64,000 nt of DNA from an uncultured Bacillota bacterium (GCA_937975235.1 CALJUZ010000064.1:9306-73305); one strand, 5' to 3'; shown: positions 27,733-62,002, counted from the stretch's first letter. Translations and numbers: made by a program. The notes: generated from the letters alone by a model not told the origin.

Positions 27733-29469
27733 TCAGCTGGCGGGATTGGCCCCGTGGGCCAGCTCCAGAAGCTCCCTGGCGTGGTCCAGCGTGCTGGCGG
27801 TCAGGACGCCGGCCAGCATCCGCGCGATCTCTTCCACCCGGTCCTCGCCGGCCAGGGGCCGGACCGTGACCGACGTGCGGCCTTCGCGCGCGCCTTTGGT
27901 GACCAGCAGGTGGTGGTCAGCCATGGTGGCCAGCTGCGCCAGGTGCGTCACGGAAATGACTTGCCGCGCGGCCGCCACCGCCCGCAGCCGCTGCGCGACG
28001 GCCTGGGCCGTGCGGCCGCCGATGCCCGCGTCCACCTCGTCAAAGACCAGCGTCGGCACCGAGTCCACCGCGGCCAGCACGCGCTTGACGGCCAAAGCCA
28101 CCCGGGACAGCTCGCCGCCCGAGGCCACCCGGGCCAGCGGCCGCGGCGGCTCGCCCGGATTGGCCGACAGCAAAAACTCCACCCGGTCCACGCCCGTCTC
28201 GCCGGCGGCCCAACGGCCGCCGGCCAAAGCCAGGCCGTCCTCCGCGGGCGTTCGCTCCAGCTGCACGACGAAGCGGCCGGGCCCCATGTGCAGCCCCTCC
28301 AGCTCCGCGGACACCGCGTCCTGCAGCGCCGCGGCCGCGTCATGGCGGGCTTTCGACAGCTCGGCGGCCAGCGCGGCCGCCTCCTTTTCCAGCGCGGCGA
28401 TTTCGGCGGTGAGCTCACCGGTGCGGGCTTCACCGGCCAAAAGCCCGTCCAGCTCCGCCCGCAGCTCTTCCGCGAACGCCAGCACCTCCGCCACGGTGGC
28501 GCCGTACTTGCGCTTCAGGTCCGAGATGACGGCCAGGCGCCGCTGCACCTCCTCCAGCGCGGCCGGATCCGCTTCCAGCTGGTCCGCGTAGCGGCGCAGC
28601 ACGCCCGCGACTTCCCGCACCTGCACCGCGGCTCCGTCCAGGAGCTGGGCCGCTTCGGACAGCTGCGGGTCCAGCTGCGCCAGGGCCTGCAGCGTGTACG
28701 CGGCGTCGGCCAGCACGTCGGCCGCGGCCGGCGCGCCGTCCCCGCCCTCGTGCAGCGCCGCGTACAGCCGGGCCGTCTCGGTCTGCAGCTTCTCCAGATG
28801 CTGCAGGCGCCGGCGCCGGGCCTCCAGCTCCTCTTCCTCGCCGGGATCCAGCCCGGCCGCGGCGATCTCGTCCAGCTGAAAGCGAACCAGGTCAATGCGC
28901 CGGGCCCGCTCCCGCTCGTCCTCCAGCAGGCGCGCCAGCTCCCGCCGGGACTCGGTCAGCCGCCGCCACACGTCGGCGAACCGCCGGCGCAGCGCCAGCA
29001 CGGCGTCGCCGCCGTAGGCGTCCAGAAGGTCCAGCTGGGTGCGGGGGCGGGTCAGCGACTGATGATCGTGCTGGCCGTGGATGTCCACCAGGTGCTCGCC
29101 CACCGCGGCCAGCTGCGCGACGGTGACCAGGTGGCCGTTGATGCGGCAGCGGGAGCGGCCGTTGCTGAAGACGTCCCGCCGCAGCACCAGCGTGTTCGGG
29201 TCCTCGGCGTCCAGCACGTGCATTTCCTCCAGCACGGCCTTGACCGGCGCATCGTCGGCGAGCTCGAACACCGCCTCCACCAACGCCGCGTCGCGCCCCG
29301 CCCGGACCAGGTCCGAACGGGCCCGGCCGCCCAGCACCGTCTGCAGCGCGTCGACGACGATGGACTTGCCTGCGCCCGTCTCGCCCGTCAGCACGTTGAA
29401 GCCGGGCCGGAACGCAATGTGCAGCCGGTCGATGACCGCGAAGTCGCGAATGTGCAGCTCCACCAGCAA
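27733..29469 (-). CDS. recN: DNA repair protein RecN
   Basis: 578 aa: N-terminal Walker A GETGAGKS, long coiled coils, C-terminal SGGELSRV signature and FDEVDAG. Confidence 0.95.
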   Translation of the reverse strand: MLVELHIRDFAVIDRLHIAFRPGFNVLTGETGAGKSIVVDALQTVLGGRARSDLVRAGRDAALVEAVFELADDAPVKAVLEEMHVLDAEDPNTLVLRRDVFSNGRSRCRINGHLVTVAQLAAVGEHLVDIHGQHDHQSLTRPRTQLDLLDAYGGDAVLALRRRFADVWRRLTESRRELARLLEDERERARRIDLVRFQLDEIAAAGLDPGEEEELEARRRRLQHLEKLQTETARLYAALHEGGDGAPAAADVLADAAYTLQALAQLDPQLSEAAQLLDGAAVQVREVAGVLRRYADQLEADPAALEEVQRRLAVISDLKRKYGATVAEVLAFAEELRAELDGLLAGEARTGELTAEIAALEKEAAALAAELSKARHDAAAALQDAVSAELEGLHMGPGRFVVQLERTPAEDGLALAGGRWAAGETGVDRVEFLLSANPGEPPRPLARVASGGELSRVALAVKRVLAAVDSVPTLVFDEVDAGIGGRTAQAVAQRLRAVAAARQVISVTHLAQLATMADHHLLVTKGAREGRTSVTVRPLAGEDRVEEIARMLAGVLTASTLDHARELLELAHGANPAS

Positions 29470-29475
29470 GGGGCA

Positions 29476-29952
29476 TCACTCCCGCAAATCCTGCAGGCGG
29501 CGCATGACCTCCAGCACTTCCGCCGGCGGCGCCTCGCCGGCCGCGGTGCGCACGACCACCAGCACCGCGTCGTCCCCGGCCAGCGTGCCCAAAACGCCCG
29601 GCGGCTGCCACTCGTCCAGCGCCGCGGCCACCGCGTTGGCGCGGCCGGAGAGGGTGCGCAAGAAAATAAGGTGGCCGGCGGGCTCGATGTCCAGCACGTA
29701 GTCGCGGAACGCCCTCCGGGCCCGCTCCAGCGCGTCCTGCGGCTCCACGTCCAGGGCCGCCGGCCGCGCATAGCGAGGCCGCCCGCCGGCGCTGCGCACT
29801 TTGATCAGGCCCAGCTGCGCGATGTCGCGCGATACCGTGGCCTGGGTCACGTCGAACCCTTCCCGCTGCAGCAGCGCCAACAGCTCCGCCTGCGTCTCCA
29901 CGGGCCGCTCCTCGATGATGCGCAGTATCGCGGCGTGCCGGCGTTGTCTCAT
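29476..29952 (-). CDS. argR: arginine repressor
   Basis: From ATG 29952: MRQRRHAAILRIIEERPVETQAELLALLQREGFDVTQATVSRDIAQLGL...GTLAGDD. ATGA overlap with the nadK stop. Confidence 0.9.
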   Translation of the reverse strand: MRQRRHAAILRIIEERPVETQAELLALLQREGFDVTQATVSRDIAQLGLIKVRSAGGRPRYARPAALDVEPQDALERARRAFRDYVLDIEPAGHLIFLRTLSGRANAVAAALDEWQPPGVLGTLAGDDAVLVVVRTAAGEAPPAEVLEVMRRLQDLRE

Positions 29953-30836
29953 GCGTCCAGCCCGCCCTCCCCCGGAATGGTGTACGCTTTCCCCTGGCCC
30001 AGCCGCTCCCGGAGCTCGCGGTAGAAGCGGTCCCGGCCGAAGCGCACCAGACGCACCGGACGAGGCGCCCGCCCGATGCGCACCACGTCGCCGGGCGCGA
30101 TGCTGAAGCCCACCTGCCCGTCCACCGTGACCATAATGTCGGCGTGGGAGGCCGTCACCCGCACCACCACTTCCTCGTCGGCGTGCACCACCACCGAGCG
30201 CGACGCCAAGGCGTGGGGACAGATGGGTGTCAGGATGACCGCGTCGATGCGCGGATTGACGATGGGACCGCCCGCGGACAAGGAATATCCCGTGGAGCCG
30301 GTAGGGGTGGCCACGATCAGGCCGTCGCCGGAGTAGTCGAAGACCAGCTCGCCGTCGACGGTGGCCTCGATGCGGATGATGCGGGCGAAGGTGCCCCGGT
30401 TGATGACGACGTCGTTGAGCGCCACGACGTCGGCAAACACCTCGCCCTTCCGGGTGAGCCGGGCTTTCAGCATCATGCGCTCTTCGACGTGAAACTCCCC
30501 GGCGAGAAGGCGCGTCAGCGCCTTCTCCAGCGCGTCGTGATCCACCTCGGTCAGAAACCCCAGCCGGCCTACGTTGACGCACAGAAGCGGCGTCGTGTCC
30601 TGCGTCAGCGCGCGCGCCGCCCGCAGCACCGCGCCGTCGCCGCCGACGACGACGACCGCGTCCAGATCTTCCCACGACGGAGCGGGCAGGGCCAGGTCGT
30701 CCCGTCCCAGCGCGCGAGCGGCTTCGGGCTCCAAGACGACGGCCGCGCCCGCTTCCTCCAAATAGTTCAGCGCCTGGCGGCCCACTTCCAGCGCCTTGCC
30801 CTTCCCTGTGTGAGGCATGAGTCCGAATCGCTTCAC
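29949..30836 (-). CDS. nadK: NAD(+) kinase
   Basis: 295 aa with GGDG motif (VVVGGDGAVLRAAR) and NDVVI...TPTGSTGYSLSAGGPI. GTG start. Confidence 0.9.
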   Translation of the reverse strand: MKRFGLMPHTGKGKALEVGRQALNYLEEAGAAVVLEPEAARALGRDDLALPAPSWEDLDAVVVVGGDGAVLRAARALTQDTTPLLCVNVGRLGFLTEVDHDALEKALTRLLAGEFHVEERMMLKARLTRKGEVFADVVALNDVVINRGTFARIIRIEATVDGELVFDYSGDGLIVATPTGSTGYSLSAGGPIVNPRIDAVILTPICPHALASRSVVVHADEEVVVRVTASHADIMVTVDGQVGFSIAPGDVVRIGRAPRPVRLVRFGRDRFYRELRERLGQGKAYTIPGEGGLDA

Positions 30837-30983: not shown

Positions 30984-31808
30984 TCACGTCGTGGGCAGAT
31001 CCGCCTCGTGGGCCGCGGCCACCGTGTCCGCGACGATGCGCTCCCACGCCGCCGGGTCCCGGGCCGGAGCGCTCCGCCGCGCGCCGGCCAAATACTCGAT
31101 GTTGCCTTCGGGCCCACGCAGCGGCGAAAAGGTGAGATGCTCGGGCTCCAGGCCGCTGTCGCGCAGCGCGGCCAGGACGCGGAGGACGACCTCGCGGTGA
31201 ACGTCCGGATCTTTCACGACGCCCCGCGGCCCCACCCGTTCGGGACCGGCCTCGAACTGAGGTTTGATCAGGCAGATCAGTCGCCCGTCCGTCTTCATCA
31301 GGGGAACCACCGCGGGGAAAATTTTCGCCAAGGAGATGAACGACACGTCGATGACGACCCAGTCCACGGGCTCGGGCAAATCGCCGGGCTTCAGGTGGCG
31401 GGCGTTGGTACGCTCCATGACCACGACGCGCGGGTCGTTGCGCAGCCCCCAGTGCAGCTGTCCGTAGCCGACGTCCACGGCGTACACGCGCCGGGCGCCG
31501 TGCTGGAGCAGGCAGTCGGTGAAGCCGCCGGTGGACGCGCCCACGTCCAGCGCGACGGCGCCCGCGGGATCCCAGCCGAACGCGCGCAGCGCCTTCTCCA
31601 GCTTGAGCCCGCCGCGGCTGACGTACGGCATCGGATCGCCCCGCACCTCCACCCGGGCGTTCACCGGCACCATGGTGCCGGCCTTGTCCACCCGCCGGCC
31701 GTCCACGTACACGAGCCCGGCCATGATGGCCCCCAGCGCCTGCCGCCGGCTGGCGAAGGCTCCCCGTTCCACCAACAGAAGGTCGAGACGGCGCCGCTGC
31801 TCGCTCAC
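30984..31808 (-). CDS. tlyA: TlyA family rRNA (cytidine-2'-O)-methyltransferase
   Basis: From GTG 31808: S4-like N terminus (RLDLLLVERGAFASRRQALGAIMAGLVYVDG) and FtsJ-like SAM domain (LDVGASTGGFTDCLLQHGA). GTGA overlap with the upstream membrane-protein gene. Confidence 0.9.
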   Translation of the reverse strand: MSEQRRRLDLLLVERGAFASRRQALGAIMAGLVYVDGRRVDKAGTMVPVNARVEVRGDPMPYVSRGGLKLEKALRAFGWDPAGAVALDVGASTGGFTDCLLQHGARRVYAVDVGYGQLHWGLRNDPRVVVMERTNARHLKPGDLPEPVDWVVIDVSFISLAKIFPAVVPLMKTDGRLICLIKPQFEAGPERVGPRGVVKDPDVHREVVLRVLAALRDSGLEPEHLTFSPLRGPEGNIEYLAGARRSAPARDPAAWERIVADTVAAAHEADLPTT

Positions 31809-32473
31809 GACGTTCGGCCTCGCTTTGCGTTGTTGTTGCTTTGTCCCCGACGGGCGTTGCCGTTTTTTCGCCCGCGGCCGCGACGGGAACCGCCGGCGAA
31901 GCGGATGCCCGTCACCCGGCCGATCACGTGCAGGACCCGCCCCGACCACAGGACGATTTCGGTGCGCCGCTCAAACGCGATCGTCTTGGCGTACGCTTTC
32001 CCTCCCACGGCCAACGCGGCGATGACCGCGATGAGAAGAGTCGACAAGATCGTTTCGTTGAGGCCGGGATACGCGGTGACCAGGCGGAACACGATGGTGG
32101 CGCCGATGGCGCCGCTGAGGGTTCCCACCACGTCGCCCACGATGTCCAGCGTGAAGCTGGCCACCTGGTCTTGATGGCGCACCAGCCAGCTGGCTTCCCG
32201 CGCGCCGGGAACGCGCTGCACCGCCATCGCGTGGAACGGATCCTCGCGCGACGCGGTGGTGGCAACGCCAATCAGGTCAAACAGGATGCCGACGGCGACA
32301 ATGACCAGCAGAAGAAGAAAACTCGTGAAAAGGTCAAGCCAGGCCAGAAGACCGGTGCTCAGAAGGGAGAAGACGATGGAAGTGAAAAACGTCAGTATGC
32401 CGACGCGCCAAAAGCGACTCAGTTTTGCTGTCCACCGTCCGTGTGAAAAAAGAGGTGGCAAGTGGCCACGCAC
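31805..32473 (-). CDS. oapA: four-TM membrane protein with basic C-terminal tail, OapA-like (OLE-associated protein A candidate)
   Basis: Four hydrophobic helices (ILTFFTSIVFSLLSTGLLAWL / FLLLLVIVAVGILFDLIGVA / VASFTLDIVGDVVGTLSGAIGATIVF / ILSTLLIAVIAALAVGG) and an Arg/Gly/Lys/Asn-rich tail. Sits directly 3' of the structured non-coding region. Start unresolved (GTG 32473, TTG 32461 or CTG 32422). Confidence 0.6.
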   Translation of the reverse strand: MRGHLPPLFSHGRWTAKLSRFWRVGILTFFTSIVFSLLSTGLLAWLDLFTSFLLLLVIVAVGILFDLIGVATTASREDPFHAMAVQRVPGAREASWLVRHQDQVASFTLDIVGDVVGTLSGAIGATIVFRLVTAYPGLNETILSTLLIAVIAALAVGGKAYAKTIAFERRTEIVLWSGRVLHVIGRVTGIRFAGGSRRGRGRKNGNARRGQSNNNAKRGRTS

Positions 32474-32474
32474 C

Positions 32475-33081
32475 GGGTAAACCTTGTGGCTTAAGGTCCA
32501 GCAGGATTTCCCAACGCTCCTCCGCAGCGTCGCCGCCGCGGCGGTTTCCCCTTTCCGAGCGCTCTGCCGCGTCACCGCCGGCAGGGCTGGATTACCACTG
32601 AGCACACACCCTAATCCCCGGCGCGCTACCCCGCAGGGAACAGCCTAGGAGTTTTCCTCGGCGACGCTCATCGTCCCCTAGCCTCTTTTGCGCAACAATC
32701 TTCGAGCGGCAACGAACCCGCGGCCGTGGCCTTTGGCCCGCGGGTCTGAACCCGCTCTCCCGACTGCTCCGCTCAAGGCAGGCTACGCTGCACCCAACGC
32801 TCCCCGCACGGCGTGCGTGTCGCATCGAGCTGCAGGTTCTTCCCAAGTCGTAGCGACGGGGCCTCACGACCCGGCCGCCACGCACTTGGGTCTCCGCGGA
32901 AGCAGGGTCAACGCCTGCATGCCGTTGCAGATCGCCCCACTTCCTTAACCCCCAGCAGCAACCCCCGACTGGGCGTCGGGAGCCACCACCAGAGACTTCA
33001 TCGATGTGCCCTGTCCGGATTTTTAGGCCCGGCTTCGGAGACGCGAGCACCGACTAGGATACTGCGCCACTTGCCCTTCGC
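32475..33081 (-). ncRNA. ole: large structured non-coding RNA, OLE (ornate, large, extremophilic) RNA candidate
   Basis: About 600 nt between ispA and the OapA-like gene with no credible ORF. Composition is less GC-rich than the flanks, and many local and nested complementary segments are present. Size, strand and ispA / membrane protein / tlyA-nadK-recN context match what is known for OLE RNA. Ends are approximate. Confidence 0.6.
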
Positions 33082-33087
33082 AACGCC

Positions 33088-33117
33088 ATTGTATCATACC
33101 GCCGCCCCGCGCCGCAA
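33088..33117 (-). promoter_or_regulatory. candidate sigma-A promoter (extended -10) in front of the OLE-like RNA
   Basis: Minus strand reads TTGCGG - 18 nt - TACAAT, with TGa immediately 5' of the -10 (TGATACAAT). A GCGCCGC-GTT-GCGGCGC hairpin overlaps the -35, just after the ispA stop. Confidence 0.4.
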
Positions 33118-33128
33118 CGCGGCGCCCC

Positions 33129-34052
33129 TCACCGGTCTCTGCCGACGGCGAAGTCGGCCAGAGCCGCCAGCACGTCCCGCCCGGGAGACGGCAGTCCGGC
33201 CACGGCCTCCCGGGCCGCGGCCGCGGCCTGCCGCGCCATCCTGCGGGCCTCCTCGAGCCCCACCAGCGCCGGATACGTGGCCTTGGCCCTTTCGCTGTCC
33301 CGGCCCGGCCGTTTGCCCAGCGCCTGCGGGTCGCCGGTGACGTCCAAAATGTCGTCGGCGATTTGAAACGCCAGCCCGAACGCGTCCGCGTAGTCGGTCA
33401 GCGACTGCAGCGTCTCCGGCCCCGCACCGGCCAGGAGCGCCCCGCAGCGCACGCACGCCCGGAACAGCGCGCCGGTTTTGCGCAGGTGGATGGAACGCAG
33501 GTGATCCACCGTGACGTCGGTGCGGCCTTCGGCCTCCAGGTCGGCCACCTGGCCGCCGATGAGGCCCATGGTGCCCGCCGCGTCGGTCAGCTCTTCAATG
33601 ACGGCCAGGGCCGTCCCGGCCGAAACGCCCGCCAGGCGCGGCAGGCGCCCCAGCACCCAAAACGCATGCGTCAGCAGCGCGTCGCCGGCCAGCACCGCCA
33701 TGCCTTCGCCGAACACTTTGTGGGTCGTGGGCTTGCCCCGCCGCATGTCGTCGTCGTCCATGGCCGGCAAGTCATCGTGGACCAGCGAGTACGCGTGAAT
33801 CATCTCCAGCGCCGCGGCCAGCGGCAGGGCCTTCTCTTCGGCGCCGCCCGCGGCCCGGCACGCCGCCACGGCCAGCACGCCCCGCAGGCGCTTGCCGCCG
33901 CCCAGGGCGCTGTAGCGCATGGCCCGGTGGATGGTGGCGGGATCGTCCCCTTCCGGCGGCAGCAGGCTTTCCAAAGCCCGCTCCACCGCCCGGGCCTGCT
34001 CCGCCACGTACGCCATAGGATCAAACGTGGCTCGATCAAGAGATTCCGTCAT
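33129..34052 (-). CDS. ispA: polyprenyl (farnesyl/geranylgeranyl) diphosphate synthase
   Basis: From ATG 34052: both Asp-rich motifs (LVHDDLPAMDDDDMRRG and FQIADDILD). ATGA overlap with the xseB stop. Confidence 0.9.
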   Translation of the reverse strand: MTESLDRATFDPMAYVAEQARAVERALESLLPPEGDDPATIHRAMRYSALGGGKRLRGVLAVAACRAAGGAEEKALPLAAALEMIHAYSLVHDDLPAMDDDDMRRGKPTTHKVFGEGMAVLAGDALLTHAFWVLGRLPRLAGVSAGTALAVIEELTDAAGTMGLIGGQVADLEAEGRTDVTVDHLRSIHLRKTGALFRACVRCGALLAGAGPETLQSLTDYADAFGLAFQIADDILDVTGDPQALGKRPGRDSERAKATYPALVGLEEARRMARQAAAAAREAVAGLPSPGRDVLAALADFAVGRDR

Positions 34053-34372
34053 CAATGGTCGTCCGTTTCCGTGGGAAGATCGGGTTCCAGGTGGGGCGCG
34101 TCCACTTCCTCGGCGCCGTCCGGCCCTGCCACCAGCACGCGGATGCGCGCCTCGGCCTCGTCCAGCCGCCGCCGGCAAAAGCGGGCCAACGCCACGCCTT
34201 CCTCAAACAAGGCCAGCGCCTCCTCCAGCCCCGCGTCGCCCCGCTCCAGCCTGGCCACCACCTGCTCCAGCCGGGCGAAGGCCTCTTCAAAGGTCGCCGG
34301 CCCGGAGTCCGCGTCGCCCCCGGCCCCCTCGGCCGGCTCTCCGATCTCCTTCATCGTCTCGTCCGTGTTCAT
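34052..34372 (-). CDS. xseB: exodeoxyribonuclease VII small subunit
   Basis: 106 aa with FEEAFARLEQVVARLERGDAGLEEALALFEEGVALARFCRRRLDEAEARI, the XseB helical hairpin pattern. Confidence 0.9.
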   Translation of the reverse strand: MNTDETMKEIGEPAEGAGGDADSGPATFEEAFARLEQVVARLERGDAGLEEALALFEEGVALARFCRRRLDEAEARIRVLVAGPDGAEEVDAPHLEPDLPTETDDH

Positions 34373-34430: not shown

Positions 34431-35678
34431 TCAGCCGCCCGCGGCGTCGGCGGCCAGCTCCGGCGCGGGCGCCACGGCTTTCACGCTGGCCGTCAGTTCC
34501 GCGTCCACCACCCGGATCAGGAGTTCGTCGCCTGCCGCGACCTGGCCGCCGCGCCGCACCACCTGGCCCGTGTCGGCCCGGCGGGCCACGGCGTACCCCC
34601 GGGCCAGCGTCGCCACCGGGCTCAGCGCGTCCAGTTTGCCCGCCGCGGCCGCCAGCGCCCGCTCCCGCTGATCCAGCATGTCGCGGGCCGCGCGGCCGGC
34701 CCGCTCCTCCGCATCGTCCACCCGCTGGCGGTACTCCAGGAGGAGCTCCCCCGGCCGGGCCAGCACCGGCCGGCTCTCCAGCAGCCGCAGGCGGGCCCTG
34801 CCCTGCTCGATGCGCCGCCGGACACCGCTCTGAAGCCGCTCGTACTGCCCTTGGATGTGAGCCAGCAGCGCCCGCTTGTCCGGCACCGCCATCTCCGCGG
34901 CCGCGGACGGCGTAGGCGCCCGCTTGTCCGCGACGAAATCCGCGATGGTAAAGTCGGTCTCGTGGCCCACGGCCGAGATGACCGGAATCCGCGATGCGGC
35001 AATGGCCCGGGCCACCCGTTCGTCGTTGAACGTCCACAGGTCCTCCAGGCTGCCGCCGCCCCGGCCCACGATCAGCACATCCACGCCGCCGTGCTCGTTC
35101 ATGAGCCGGATAGCGCGCACGACGCTGTCGGGTCCCTCCTCGCCCTGGACGACGGCCGGCGCGAGCAAAATCGGCATATTCGGAAAGCGGCGGCGCGTGA
35201 CGCTGATGATGTCCCGCAGCGCGGCGCCCTCCGGCGACGTGACGACGCCGATGCGCCGGGGCAGCACGGGAAGCGGCCGCTTGCGTTCTTCGTCGAACAG
35301 CCCTTCCGCGGCCAGTTTTTGTTTCAGCTGCTCGAAGGCCAGCGCCAGCTCGCCGTGGCCGGCGGGCACCATCTCCCGCACGTACAGCTGGTAGTCGCCC
35401 GCGGCTTCGTACACGCTGACGTCGCCTTTGGCGATGACGGCTTGTCCGTCCGCGGGGCGAAAGCGGAGCCGCATGTTTTCCCGCCTGAACATGACGCAGC
35501 GCAGCCGGCTGTGCTCGTCCTTGAGGGTGAAATACATGTGGCCCGACGAATGGTGCTTGAAGTTGCTGATCTCACCCAGCACCGCGACGCCCGCCAGGCG
35601 CGGGTCGCTGGTGAGGCGCTCTTTGACCATCGCGGTCAGCTCGCGCACGCTGTAAATCTGCGGTTCCGATGCCGCCAC
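34431..35678 (-). CDS. xseA: exodeoxyribonuclease VII large subunit
   Basis: 415 aa: OB-fold N terminus (YSVRELTAMVKERL...GEISNFKHHSSGHMYFTLKD) and catalytic core (GVVTSPEGAALRDI...RGGGSLEDLW.FNDE). GTG start. Confidence 0.95.
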   Translation of the reverse strand: MAASEPQIYSVRELTAMVKERLTSDPRLAGVAVLGEISNFKHHSSGHMYFTLKDEHSRLRCVMFRRENMRLRFRPADGQAVIAKGDVSVYEAAGDYQLYVREMVPAGHGELALAFEQLKQKLAAEGLFDEERKRPLPVLPRRIGVVTSPEGAALRDIISVTRRRFPNMPILLAPAVVQGEEGPDSVVRAIRLMNEHGGVDVLIVGRGGGSLEDLWTFNDERVARAIAASRIPVISAVGHETDFTIADFVADKRAPTPSAAAEMAVPDKRALLAHIQGQYERLQSGVRRRIEQGRARLRLLESRPVLARPGELLLEYRQRVDDAEERAGRAARDMLDQRERALAAAAGKLDALSPVATLARGYAVARRADTGQVVRRGGQVAAGDELLIRVVDAELTASVKAVAPAPELAADAAGG

Positions 35679-35987: not shown

Positions 35988-37079
35988 TCAGCGCTGTTCG
36001 CCCGGCGAGCCCAGCCACACGGCGCCGGCCAGCGCGACGCCGATGGCGTTGTCGACGCTGCAGCGCGGCGCAGCGAAAACGCAGCGCACGCCCAGCGGTG
36101 AGAGGGTCTCGGACAGCCGCCGGCGCAGCGCCTGGTTGGCCATGACGCCGCCCACGCCCAGAAACAGCGCGGGGGCACCTTCCGCCAGCACCTGGGCCGC
36201 CCAGCGCGACAAGCTGGCCGCGACGCACTCCTGGACCGCCGCGGCCACGTCCGCGGCCGCCACCCCCCGCTCCGTCAGCCGGGCCGCGGCCGTGTCGGGC
36301 CCGGAGAAGCTCAGGCGATGCCCGCGCACCGCCACCGGCAGCGGCGCCGCAGCCGGATCACCCTCGGCGGCCAGCCGCTCCAGATGGGGACCCGCGGGAA
36401 AGGGCAGTCCCAGGCGCACGCCCGCCCGGTCGATGAACTGCCCCGCGTACAGATCCTCCGACGCCGCCAGGGATTCGACGATCCAGCGGGCCGAAGCAAA
36501 CGGCTCTTCCGGCCCGTCGCCGGCCCGCCGCGTCCGCCGGGCCCGCAGCAGCTCCGTGGTGCCGCCCGATGCGTGCAGGACGACCACGTCGTCCACGTCG
36601 CGCCACAAAGCCGCGGCGGCGCCGTCCGCTTCGGTCCCCCCGGGCGCCGCCGACCACAGTCCCGCCCAAATATGGCCGTCCTGATGGGAAACGTCGATGA
36701 AGGGAACGCCGTGCCACGCGGCCAGGGCCCGGGCGAAGCCGGCGCCGGCCCGGAAGACGGGCATGTACGAGTCGGGCCGGGACCGCGGCGCGACGCTGGC
36801 CGCCACGGCCGCCAAAGGCAGCGCCCCGCCGCCCGGGCTCGCCGCGCCGGCGGACGCTGCCAACCAGGCCGCGGCGTCGGCCGCGGCGGCCTCCAGCAGC
36901 TCCGGCAAGCGGGTGACGTGCTGAAACACCGCGTCGGACTGGCGCAAGCCGCGCCGGCCCGCGGGCACCGCCAGCACCTGCCGGCGGTCGCTGACCAGCC
37001 GGCCGTCCACGGTCACCACGGCCACGGAAGTCGTGTACGCGCTGGTGTCGACTCCCAGCACCAAACGGTCTTCGCTCAT
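35988..37079 (-). CDS. TsaD/Kae1 (peptidase M22, ASKHA fold) family protein, divergent paralogue
   Basis: LGVDTSAYTTSVAVV, SHQDGH (HxxxH metal motif), HASGGTTE, DLYAGQFIDRAGVRLGLPFPAGPHLERLA, GGVMANQALR, CSVDNAIGVA follow the TsaD/Kae1 motif order. ATGA overlap with the nusB stop. Confidence 0.7.
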   Translation of the reverse strand: MSEDRLVLGVDTSAYTTSVAVVTVDGRLVSDRRQVLAVPAGRRGLRQSDAVFQHVTRLPELLEAAAADAAAWLAASAGAASPGGGALPLAAVAASVAPRSRPDSYMPVFRAGAGFARALAAWHGVPFIDVSHQDGHIWAGLWSAAPGGTEADGAAAALWRDVDDVVVLHASGGTTELLRARRTRRAGDGPEEPFASARWIVESLAASEDLYAGQFIDRAGVRLGLPFPAGPHLERLAAEGDPAAAPLPVAVRGHRLSFSGPDTAAARLTERGVAAADVAAAVQECVAASLSRWAAQVLAEGAPALFLGVGGVMANQALRRRLSETLSPLGVRCVFAAPRCSVDNAIGVALAGAVWLGSPGEQR

Positions 37080-50525: not shown

Positions 50526-51068
50526 TCACTGCCGGGCCTTTTGCCGCAGCTGCCAGTCGCGCTCATCCAGCAGGCCCTGGCGGACCAGCTCCCGCAGCAC
50601 TTTGCGCTCCAGCCGGCGCATCATGCGGGTGGCGCCCAGTTCTTTGGCGCTCAGAGGATTGACCAGCACGGTGAAGGTGTTCATGCGGTTGCCGCCCAGC
50701 ACGTCGGTGAACACCTGATCACCGATAACCGCCGTCTCGTCGGGCCTGGTGCCCAAAAGCCGCATGGCCCGGCGGAACGCGCGCCCGATGGGCTTGGCCG
50801 CGTTGGCGATGGCCGGGATGTTGAACTCCCGGGCAAAGTGGCGGACGCGCCTCGAGCGCGCGTTGGACGTGAGGCAGATCTTAAAGCCGCGGCCCAGCGC
50901 GTCCTCCACCCACCGCCGGGCCTCCTCGGTGGCGTGGGGGTTGCCGTATTCGATGAGCGTGTTGTCCAGATCGACGATGAGCCCGCGGATGCCGCGGGCT
51001 TTCAGGTCGTCCAGGTCCACGGCGAAGAGCGACTCGTAAACGGCGTCGGGAGCCAGAAAACGCAGCAT
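50526..51068 (-). CDS. yqeG: YqeG family HAD-IIIA phosphatase
   Basis: IRGLIVDLDNTLI (DxD), LTSNA, KP, GDQVFTDVLGGN, with the typical YqeG length and order. Confidence 0.85.
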   Translation of the reverse strand: MLRFLAPDAVYESLFAVDLDDLKARGIRGLIVDLDNTLIEYGNPHATEEARRWVEDALGRGFKICLTSNARSRRVRHFAREFNIPAIANAAKPIGRAFRRAMRLLGTRPDETAVIGDQVFTDVLGGNRMNTFTVLVNPLSAKELGATRMMRRLERKVLRELVRQGLLDERDWQLRQKARQ

Positions 51069-51111
51069 CGGTTTCCTCCGTGTCTTCCACGCTGCCTGCG
51101 ATTATACCACA

Positions 51112-51813
51112 TCAGCCGTCGGCCAGCATCCGCTCCTGCAGCTTGTGGATGGCCCGCTTCTCGATGCGGGACACGTAGGACCGGGAGATGCCCAGAAGCT
51201 TCGAGATTTCCCGCTGCGTCTGCCTCACGCCGTCCAGCAGGCCGTAGCGCAGTTCCAAAATTTTCTTCTCCCGGCGGCTGAGGCCGGTCAGCGTCTCCCG
51301 CAGCCTTTGGCTTTCGATGCGCCGCTCCACCCGGTCCGCCACCATGTCCGCGTCGGTGCCCAAAATGTCCAGCAGCGTGATTTCATTGCCCTCTTTGTCC
51401 GCGCCGATGGGGTCGAAGAGGAGCACCTCGCCCCGGGTTTTCTTCGTGGCCCGCAGGTGCATCAAGATTTCGTTTTCGATGCACCGGGCCGCATAGGTGG
51501 CCAGACGGGTGTTCTTGCCGGGGTCGAAGGTGTTGATGGCCTTGATCAAGCCGATGGTCCCGATGGAGATGAGATCATCCGCGTCCTCGCCGGTGTTGTC
51601 GAACTTTTTCACGATGTGGGCCACCAGCCGCAAGTTGTGCTCCACCAACAGGTTGCGGGCGTCGGCGTCGCCGTCGGCCATGCGCTCCAAAAGGCGGGCT
51701 TCCTCGTCGGGCGGCAGCGGCTGCGGGAAGACGCTGTTGCTGATGTACGCCGCCGCGACGAGAAAGCCGTCCAGAAGCCACGCCGCCGCGGCCGCAATGA
51801 AAGGCGGGATCAA
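51112..51813 (-). CDS. sigK: sporulation sigma factor SigK (pro-sigma-K, uninterrupted)
   Basis: Pro-sequence plus [11 protein letters not shown] (B. subtilis YVKNNAFPQPL), [69 protein letters not shown] start 8 nt after AGGAGGTG. Confidence 0.9.
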
Positions 51814-61686: not shown

Positions 61687-61779
61687 AGCATCCACCTCGG
61701 TTCCGCCCGTGCGCCTTCCGCGCTCCGGCCGCCGGCGTCCGCTCCGGCGCCGGCCTGGCTTTACCGCCATTATGGCACA

Positions 61780-62002
61780 AAAAAACGGGAGCGTCGCTCC
61801 CGAAGAAGTACCCCGCCATGCCGCTGAACCGACCTTAATGAACCTGCGCTCAAGCAGGTGGGTGTCCTCCTGGGCGCTTGTGAGCTTCCCCGTCAGGCGA
61901 GGCCTGCTCGCCACGCCCAGAGTCCAGACTCCCAATGTAGTAGGTGTTCGGTCATTAATAGGTCCGGTTGCATGGCGCACACAGCAGGGCATGTGTGTCC
62001 GC
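61780..62002 (-). ncRNA. ssrS: 6S RNA-like small RNA
   Basis: Lies in the 431-nt aspS-rarA gap. 5' arm CGCCAUGC-AACCGGACC-..-UUAAUGACC pairs with 3' arm GGUUCAUUAA-GGUCGGUU-..-GCAUGGCG. A large asymmetric internal bubble carries an ACCUGC/GCAGGU hairpin on its 3' side, and there is a distal CUGGGCG/CGCCCAG stem. Ends in CGGGAGC-GAC-GCUCCCG plus seven U. Confidence 0.6.

Follow-up and report, generated by a model that had tools for sequence, protein, structure and literature searches.

What fills the long interval between ispA and the gene for a small membrane protein in this uncultured Bacillota genome? In the window, as the whole analysed stretch of 64,000 nt is called here, the stop codon of ispA occupies 33129-33131 and the next open reading frame (ORF) has its first in-frame start, a GTG, at 32473, which leaves a gap of 655 nt. 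An earlier note had given this distance and had proposed that the gap encodes an OLE RNA. The distance is borne out, and the real non-coding span is longer, amounting to 706 nt if the downstream gene starts at CTG 32422 as discussed below. The gap had also been described as unusual in size. It is the clearest long non-coding stretch on a crude GC3 gene map of the window, although a few other gaps stay ambiguous on that map; the other large gaps mostly hold long ORFs with a GC3 of 0.85-0.88 that were dropped by its filter.

Family match and host

OLE is known as a structured bacterial RNA of ~600 nt that acts at the cell membrane together with its partner OapA. The whole window was scanned with Rfam. 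Two matches were found in the 64 kb, namely 6S RNA at 61993..61806 and OLE (RF01071) at 33086..32446 on the minus strand. The OLE match reaches 445 bits compared with a gathering score of 50 (E = 2e-127) and spans model positions 1-616 of 616, with 641 nt of the window matched. The minus-strand search by which the earlier note wanted its call to be checked is thus well above the gathering score over the full model, and the assignment of the interval between ispA and the four-helix protein gene to OLE holds. Other large ornate RNAs (GOLLD, ROOL, raiA, HEARO) had no Rfam match in the window, and these families were rejected as candidates.

The copy is identical to the RF01071 consensus at 230 of the 249 highly conserved (upper-case) positions. 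When the sequence is threaded onto the consensus structure of RF01071, 144 of the 158 consensus pairs are canonical base pairs. We therefore read the region as the ole gene of an uncultured Limnochordales (Bacillota) bacterium, encoding a full-length OLE RNA of ~630 nt (32446..33086, minus strand), with a probability of about 0.97. The match to the model runs from end to end, the conserved nucleotides and helices P1-P15 are present, and the gene is located directly upstream of an OapA-family gene. As an additional instance of a curated Rfam family, the copy is an ordinary and unsurprising identification, and what is known about OLE stays unchanged by it.

The proteins XseA, XseB, RecN and IspA as well as one neighbouring protein match MAG entries annotated as 'Limnochordales bacterium' or 'Bacillota bacterium' residue for residue. 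Judged by these protein matches, the host is a Limnochordales MAG (Bacillota). OLE hosts belong to Bacillota and are typically anaerobes or extremophiles, and with respect to the phylum the present host agrees with this. OLE is also found in a further Limnochordia MAG (L003) of the genome collection. No paper mentioning OLE together with Limnochordia was found in the literature library. More than 2,800 OLE representatives have been reported, covering nearly all Bacillota classes (PMC11332333).

Fold, covariation and predicted protein sites

To examine the fold, an alignment of 69 OLE sequences was used, comprising the window OLE, 64 full-length OLEs from diverse Bacillota and four partial sequences from close relatives. 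The sequences were aligned with MAFFT without structural information, and the Rfam pairs were then mapped onto the columns. OLE exceeds 400 columns, and this alignment with the mapped Rfam structure was used in place of a covariance model of our own. Standard pairs are found in 86.7% of the cells, compared with 40-45% when the partners are slid by 1-3 columns. Changes on both sides are seen in 131 of the 158 pairs, and none of 500 shuffles attained the observed values. Covariation, which the earlier note had named as a check, supports the fold in this independent alignment.

Neither end of the RNA is paired in the Rfam structure line. Terminal helices were proposed here from the window sequence and correspond to P1-P3 of the published OLE model. 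They are 89.3% paired (33-47% when slid), and 26 of their 33 pairs change on both sides. In the following, all features are on the minus strand, and OLE position n is window position 33087-n. P1 is formed by GGCAAGUGGC (33066..33075, OLE positions 12-21) and GCCACUUGCC (32457..32466, OLE positions 621-630), the latter containing an in-frame TTG at 32461-32459. It has 10 bp and a duplex energy of -21.7 kcal/mol, and 9 of the 10 pairs change on both sides across 65 sequences. The 5' strand of P2, GCAG-UAU-CCUAG (33054..33065), pairs with CCUAGGCUGU (32640-32648), that is, OLE positions 22-25 and 29-33 with 439-447. P2 is paired in 100% of the cells, and one C-G pair of the window OLE is replaced by U-A in most relatives (41 U-A, 22 C-G). 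The 5' strand of P3/P3.1 (33037..33052) pairs with 32662-32678 (OLE positions 35-50 with 409-425). The helix comprises 14 bp in the window OLE, 13 of which show changes on both sides. P3 is the helix that was proposed to span the membrane, with ~14 bp needed for crossing (PMC12265935).

The P4 hairpin with its A-rich loop CCUAAAAA (33014..33033) is evident from the consensus structure and the alignment. It is followed by the J4/4a-J4a/5 block GGGCACAUCGAUGAAGU (32995..33011), the columns of which are nearly invariant among the 69 OLEs. P5/P5.1 is a long hairpin (32949..32995; loop GCCCA, 32970-32974) that is 94.8% paired and has 13 pairs with changes on both sides. P6/P6.1 (32898..32944; loop ACGGCA, 32920-32925) and P7 (32842..32890) are likewise covarying helices in the alignment. 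P8 (32788..32835) carries a 19-nt extension that forms CGCAC-GCC-GUGCG and represents an insertion relative to the Rfam model. This extension is clade-specific, being common to the four closest relatives (L081, L084, L086 and L088), in which the stem is kept while the loop varies. The long arm of P9 (32681..32779), as given by the consensus structure, ends in the apical loop AAAGGCCAC with a GGCC palindrome at 32728-32731. The helices of the 3' domain, P10-P15 (32467..32659), are 82-99.8% paired in the alignment. In the threaded structure, P13 of this domain (32564-32584) is capped by a GUGA tetraloop (32572-32575) and has one bulged G, and P14.1 carries a GCGA loop (32530-32533).

Most of the complementary segments that had been listed for this region are part of the consensus fold. 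CCCAAGU/ACUUGGG corresponds to P7, CUGCA-ACGGCA-UGCAG to P6.1, CCCGAC-GCCCA-GUCGGG to P5.1, CUGCCG/CGGCAG to P13 and CCAGC/GCUGG to P12, and both GAGCGG/CCGCUC and CCCGCGG/CCGCGGG belong to P9. The exception is GCGGGU-UCAG-ACCCGC, a local alternative incompatible with the P9 pairing of the consensus.

The determinants of dimerisation can be recognized in the sequence as the A-rich L4 CCUAAAAA, the L5 loop GCCCA, the L6 loop ACGGCA and the GGCC of L9.3. The A-rich L4 loop constitutes dimer bridge B1 in the cryo-EM structures (PMC12286853). In relatives, the GGCC of L9.3 switches to one of the other palindromes UGCA, GAUC or AGCU, and palindromic covariation of the same kind served as evidence for the dimer kissing loop in the cryo-EM paper (PMC12286853). 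The J4/4a-J4a/5 region has been assigned roles as the OapA-site region and as the k-turn strand, the latter being the OapC site (PMC9723947, PMC12286853). The J4a/5 k-turn strand of the window OLE, GGGCACAUCGAUGAAGU, is identical to the consensus and is the predicted OapC site. In P13, OapB requires a GNRA tetraloop together with a single-nucleotide bulge; its site also includes another GNRA loop, carried by P14.1 (PMC7936274). P13 of the window OLE, CUGCC[G]GCG-GUGA-CGCGGCAG, has both a GNRA loop and a single-nucleotide bulge, and P14.1 has the second GNRA loop, GCGA; the two loops are predicted OapB sites. With regard to the genes oapB, oapC and bS21, no KOW, L7Ae or bS21 match was obtained with Pfam among ten small or neighbouring ORFs of the 64 kb window. 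In the genomes of known OLE hosts, these genes normally lie elsewhere.

Predicted transcript ends, oapA and rival readings

A promoter-like element is found at the 5' edge of the RNA (33088..33117, minus strand), as the earlier note had described. It consists of TTGCGG (33117-33112), an 18-nt spacer and the extended -10 element TGaTACAAT (33096-33088). The -35 element is weak (3 of 6 matches), and the site is unlisted in the generic promoter scan, where it scores 8 of 12 at a threshold of 9. The motif itself is rare: TGNTAYAAT occurs twice in the 64 kb, compared with 0.16 expected occurrences, and the second copy is intergenic, correctly oriented and followed by a gene with a good Shine-Dalgarno sequence. 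Its position is kept across OLE loci. Among 64 loci from many lineages, 47 have a TGnTATAAT-like element whose end is 6-26 nt upstream of the conserved GUGGUGCAGUAU; the distance is 17 nt in the window and has its mode at 14-19 nt across the other loci. This comparison covers more distant genomes, as the contigs of the closest relatives nearly all break inside OLE. The predicted transcription start is ~33081, ~6 nt before P1. The distance from the ispA stop codon to the -35-like hexamer is 11 nt, and the terminator scan gave no terminator-like site between ispA and OLE, so that read-through transcription from ispA into OLE is likely as well. In Halalkalibacterium halodurans, ole is part of a large operon and additionally has its own promoter (PMC9723947).

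At the 3' end, the terminator scan flagged a U6 tract (32446..32451, minus strand) ~5 nt after P1, within a broader U-rich stretch, CUCUUUUUU, that begins 3 nt after P1. The U6 tract is likely the 3' end of OLE or the tail of a terminator. There are ~14 distinct T6 sites in the 64 kb, and another one is found just after 6S RNA. A U-tract is present 1-5 nt after P1 in four of four close relatives, while the surrounding sequence varies. Applied to the whole family, the scan between OLE and oapA is noisy in AT-rich genomes, and the result for the GC-rich clade alone was used. The 3' limit of 32475 that had been proposed for the RNA is too early, since the RNA extends ~29 nt further through the 3' strand of P1 and the U-tract.

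These limits bear on the start of oapA. GTG 32473 and TTG 32461, the canonical in-frame starts, are both located inside OLE helices. Between P1 and the conserved block CACGGAYGGTGGACA..AAACTG, the lengths in close relatives differ by non-multiples of 3 and the upstream frames differ, which indicates that this stretch is non-coding. CTG 32422 is the sole start-like codon conserved in all five sequences (the window and its close relatives), and an SD-like GGTGGA (32431-32436) is located 8 nt before it. The Limnochordia MAG L003 has TTG at the homologous codon, with GAGGGAG before it. No canonical oapA start downstream of OLE is conserved in this clade. Based on this comparison, oapA most likely starts at CTG 32422, a placement held with moderate confidence and better supported than the first possible start at 32473 given previously, which is inside the RNA. 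The gene would then extend over 31805..32422 (minus strand) and encode 205 aa, with TTG 32461 and GTG 32473 as alternative in-frame starts. The TTG within P1 could be mistaken for the oapA start by a gene caller. Public gene calls in which oapA reaches into OLE and is 244-266 aa long are probably wrong.

It is conceivable, if rather improbable, that P1 and the U-tract form a long-range terminator that depends on folding and precedes the CTG-initiated oapA, and set the ratio of RNA to protein. Correctly folded OLE would end transcription at the U-tract, and the polymerase would proceed into the weakly initiated oapA only if the RNA is unfolded or unfinished. If true, such a terminator would fix the RNA-to-protein ratio of the OLE particle.

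The downstream protein is a member of the OapA family. The earlier note had called it a protein with four transmembrane segments and had named OapA as the membrane protein encoded directly after OLE RNAs, and its sequence agrees with both. Hydropathy analysis of the 205-aa form gives four TM-like cores (residues 9-27, 35-53, 94-116 and 125-143), and the C-terminal 40 residues contain 12 K/R and no D/E. Pfam CNNM/DUF21 (PF01595) matches with 23 bits (E = 7e-5), below the threshold of 28.4, and no further Pfam domain, including CBS or CorC, was found in the protein. The published description of OapA likewise notes weak homology to the CNNM domain of MpfA (PMC11332333). In the protein collection, 94 homologues share the invariant residues D66, D110, G113, D114, G117, S120 and G121 as well as a GGKA...K motif. 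The peptide pattern [LVM]TVGGKAx[GAC]K retrieved 584 OapA relatives from the genome collection; the best match among species-representative genomes is 47-53% identical, where the pattern is unable to match the AVGGKA of the window itself. With an nhmmer OLE profile, OLE was found directly upstream of the OapA homologue in 85 of 90 fetched loci, and three of the five negative loci have <160 nt of upstream sequence. In the window, the OLE 3' end (32446) is immediately upstream of oapA (32422 or earlier) on the same strand.

The wider gene order, as annotated with NCBIfam and Pfam, is xseA-xseB-ispA-OLE-oapA-tlyA-nadK-argR-recN, all on the minus strand. The NCBIfam assignments comprise xseA (34431-35678), xseB (34052-34372), the farnesyl diphosphate synthase gene ispA (33129..34052; NF045485, 343 bits), tlyA (30984-~31800), the NAD kinase gene nadK (29949-30836), argR between nadK and recN, and recN (27733-29469). 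Apart from dxs, the same neighbourhood has been published for OLE (PMC12265935). Of the ispA/dxs/tlyA/nadK/recN surroundings that had been cited in favour of OLE, ispA, tlyA, nadK and recN are present, while dxs, a frequent neighbour of OLE, is absent here. The closest relatives have the same gene order, also without dxs.

The position of OLE directly upstream of oapA on the same strand would also suit a cis-regulatory leader of oapA, a giant riboswitch or attenuator in place of a stable RNA in its own right. The U-tract after the closing helix P1 adds to this, as the choice between termination and read-through could set oapA expression, and so does the lack of a conserved canonical start codon between OLE and oapA in this clade. 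However, the studied OLEs accumulate as abundant, stable RNAs, which dimerise and are bound by OapA, OapB and OapC, and ~25% of the nucleotides are conserved across Bacillota, far above the need of an attenuator. A leader function is unnecessary to account for the locus and would be compatible with a stable RNA product too. As the main role of OLE, it is very unlikely.

Still less probability is attached to a decaying, non-functional OLE remnant. With 445 bits, the window OLE scores below the 11 relatives that were scored first with RF01071 (463-522 bits); two further relatives reached 354 and 404 bits, and altogether Rfam confirmed OLE at 13 of 15 tested related loci (353-522 bits). Relative to the model, the copy also differs at 19 highly conserved positions and contains 29 inserted nt. 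The lower score is explained by GC-driven substitutions together with these inserted nucleotides. The mismatches are mostly changes from A/U to G/C, and several of them are common to related lineages or compensated, as in P2, P3 and the internal loop of P9. Decay is further contradicted by the intact state of 92% of the conserved positions and 91% of the pairs, by the preserved stem of the P8 extension with its varying loop in four relatives, and by an intact oapA. At the level of sequence, all mapped protein sites and dimer loops are kept.

The composition of the gap is less GC-biased than that of its flanks (0.65-0.67 across the RNA, 0.70-0.75 in the flanking regions), as had been noticed before. 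The dismissal of its ORFs as junk is also upheld, the best of them having a GC3 of 0.65-0.67 compared with 0.82-0.92 in the real genes of the window. No coding frame is conserved among relatives, the finding that the earlier note would have counted against OLE: the stretch homologous to OLE has stops in all three frames in every one of the eight relatives tested. Relative to the three closest relatives, substitutions are spread evenly over the codon positions (16/15/14, 13/17/15 and 20/16/21), most indels in the stretch are not multiples of 3 and break the frame, and the variation that is present is compensatory in helices. Despite the open frames in the gap and the database proteins P0001 (266 aa) and P0002 (244 aa) that extend oapA into OLE, a protein-coding region, be it an N-terminal extension of oapA or the 152-aa ORF at 32592..33050 (minus strand), has a negligible likelihood, and the internal ORF is refuted as a gene by the comparison with relatives.

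Proposed role and comparison with known systems

Taking the region as a full-length OLE RNA, the following picture may be drawn. OLE would be transcribed from its own extended -10 promoter, with a start at ~33081, and probably also by read-through from xseA-xseB-ispA. From position and comparison, the transcript is expected to begin a few nt before P1 and to end at the U-tract just past the 3' strand of P1, while some transcripts may read on into oapA. By homology to the RNAs of H. halodurans and Clostridium, domain 1 (P4-P9) and domain 2 (P1, P2 and P10-P15) would be joined by the 14-bp P3. Homology likewise suggests that the RNA dimerises via the A-rich L4, the L5/L6 loops and the GGCC palindrome in L9.3. 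OapA dimers would bind OLE and hold the RNA at, possibly across, the membrane, OapB would bind the P13 GNRA loop and bulge, and OapC the k-turn. If the homology extends to function, the OLE particle would help the cell to cope with cold, short-chain alcohols, excess Mg2+ and poor carbon sources.

Of the bacterial RNAs without an assigned biochemical function, OLE is one of the largest and best conserved. The present copy adds a clean, full-length representative from Limnochordales, a poorly sampled and very GC-rich lineage. GC-rich OLEs may be more thermostable and could aid structural work on domain 2. In addition, public annotations that extend oapA into OLE are corrected, and two family-wide features that help to delimit the transcript are documented, namely an extended -10 promoter whose distance from P1 is fixed, as well as the covarying helices P1-P3 that are missing from the Rfam structure line.

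The window OLE closely resembles the studied RNAs of RF01071, i.e. those of H. halodurans and, by cryo-EM, of C. acetobutylicum and C. botulinum. It has the same length, helices and conserved nucleotides, the same A-rich L4, L9.3 palindrome, k-turn strand and P13 GNRA loop with bulge, and the same place before oapA, in an operon with an own promoter and surrounded by genes for isoprenoid synthesis, DNA repair, NAD kinase and ArgR. In contrast to the studied OLEs, it has a GC content of 65% in a genome of ~72% GC, a P8 with a 19-nt clade-specific extension and a P3/P3.1 of 14 bp where 12 are typical. Its locus differs from theirs in the absence of dxs, the U-tract directly after P1 and the lack of a conserved canonical oapA start.

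Two reduced forms of the RNA, OLE variants 1 and 2, were reportedly described by Fernando and Breaker in 2024. These variants, from the TANB77 and RF39 clades, belong to the same family and share the conserved core with the window OLE. Their P7-P9 are shortened or missing and the OapB site is often lost (PMC11332333). In the window OLE, P7, P8, the long P9 and the predicted OapB site are all present; it was rejected as a reduced variant and belongs to the full-length type.

The downstream protein shares its four-helix transmembrane domain with the CNNM (DUF21) Mg2+ transporters MpfA, CorB and CorC. Unlike these, it has no CBS or CorC/HlyC domains, comprises ~205 aa and carries a basic tail. 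It was accordingly rejected as MpfA and assigned to OapA. Finally, GOLLD, ROOL, raiA and HEARO resemble OLE in being large non-coding RNAs that are highly structured and have conserved quaternary contacts, but they differ from it in their folds, hosts and gene contexts.

Start of oapA and OapA-like genes without OLE

In the Limnochordales clade to which the window belongs, the reading frame of oapA lacks any ATG, GTG or TTG from the 3' end of the OLE RNA up to the first transmembrane helix of OapA. Because of this, public gene calls of OapA homologues (P0001, P0002 and P0003) prolong oapA into the OLE RNA, to a maximum of 266 aa. The start region (32420-32473, minus strand) contains a conserved GGTGGA that is followed, after 8 nt, by CTG, which suggests that oapA uses a rare CTG start codon. 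OapA-like proteins with 39-44% identity to OapA of the window are encoded at two comparison loci from UBA5435 and Desulfovirgula MAGs (L009:1-12519 and L033:1-12597); no OLE was found there by nhmmer and Rfam searches within 6 kb on either side of the OapA-like gene.

Contig ends within the OLE gene

Many metagenome contigs begin or end within the OLE gene, among them raw-assembly contigs of the set L081-L089. The same is found at the GTDB loci L002, L007, L025, L039, L043, L044, L047, L049, L051 and L072. L081 and L082, which stem from separate samples, share an identical break point 543 nt before oapA. OLE seems to be a frequent assembly break point, perhaps due to conserved stretches that are common to co-occurring species.

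Other features of the window

A full-length 6S RNA (RF00013, 104 bits vs. 46.4) is located at 61806-61993 on the minus strand. About 20 nt past its 3' end lies one of the few T6-T7 runs of the window (61779-61785), likely the 6S RNA terminator. TTTTTT occurs 19 times in the whole window (4.8 expected from shuffles), an excess that, in a 72% GC genome, fits T-runs being retained mainly as transcript ends.

Besides the one before OLE, the sole TGNTAYAAT match of the window is TGGTATAAT (51101-51109, minus strand), flanked on one side by a gene of the sigma-70 family (51112-51813) and on the other by one that is HAD/YqeG-like (50526-51068). It is probably the promoter of the latter, which has a strong Shine-Dalgarno sequence. 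Upstream of xseA, the product of a minus-strand gene (35988-37079), labeled hypothetical by NCBI, is a divergent member of the TsaD/Kae1 fold; it scores 108 bits vs. 208 against the TsaD/Kae1 models, far under the cut-offs.

Variation in OLE structure

The P8 helix of the window's OLE extends 19 nt beyond the Rfam model (32803-32821, minus strand). The extension is predicted to fold as a CGCAC-loop-GUGCG stem that is kept in all four closest relatives with differing loops (GCC, GUUC, GCAA and GUU). In three Symbiobacteriaceae OLEs (L015, L040 and L061), junction J5/6 is the precise site of an insertion of 27-41 nt, adjoining the k-turn region (columns 142-182 of A2, a structure-blind MAFFT alignment of 69 OLEs). 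In the same alignment, the UUAAG that is near-invariant at J5/6 elsewhere is replaced by GCCGG in these three RNAs.
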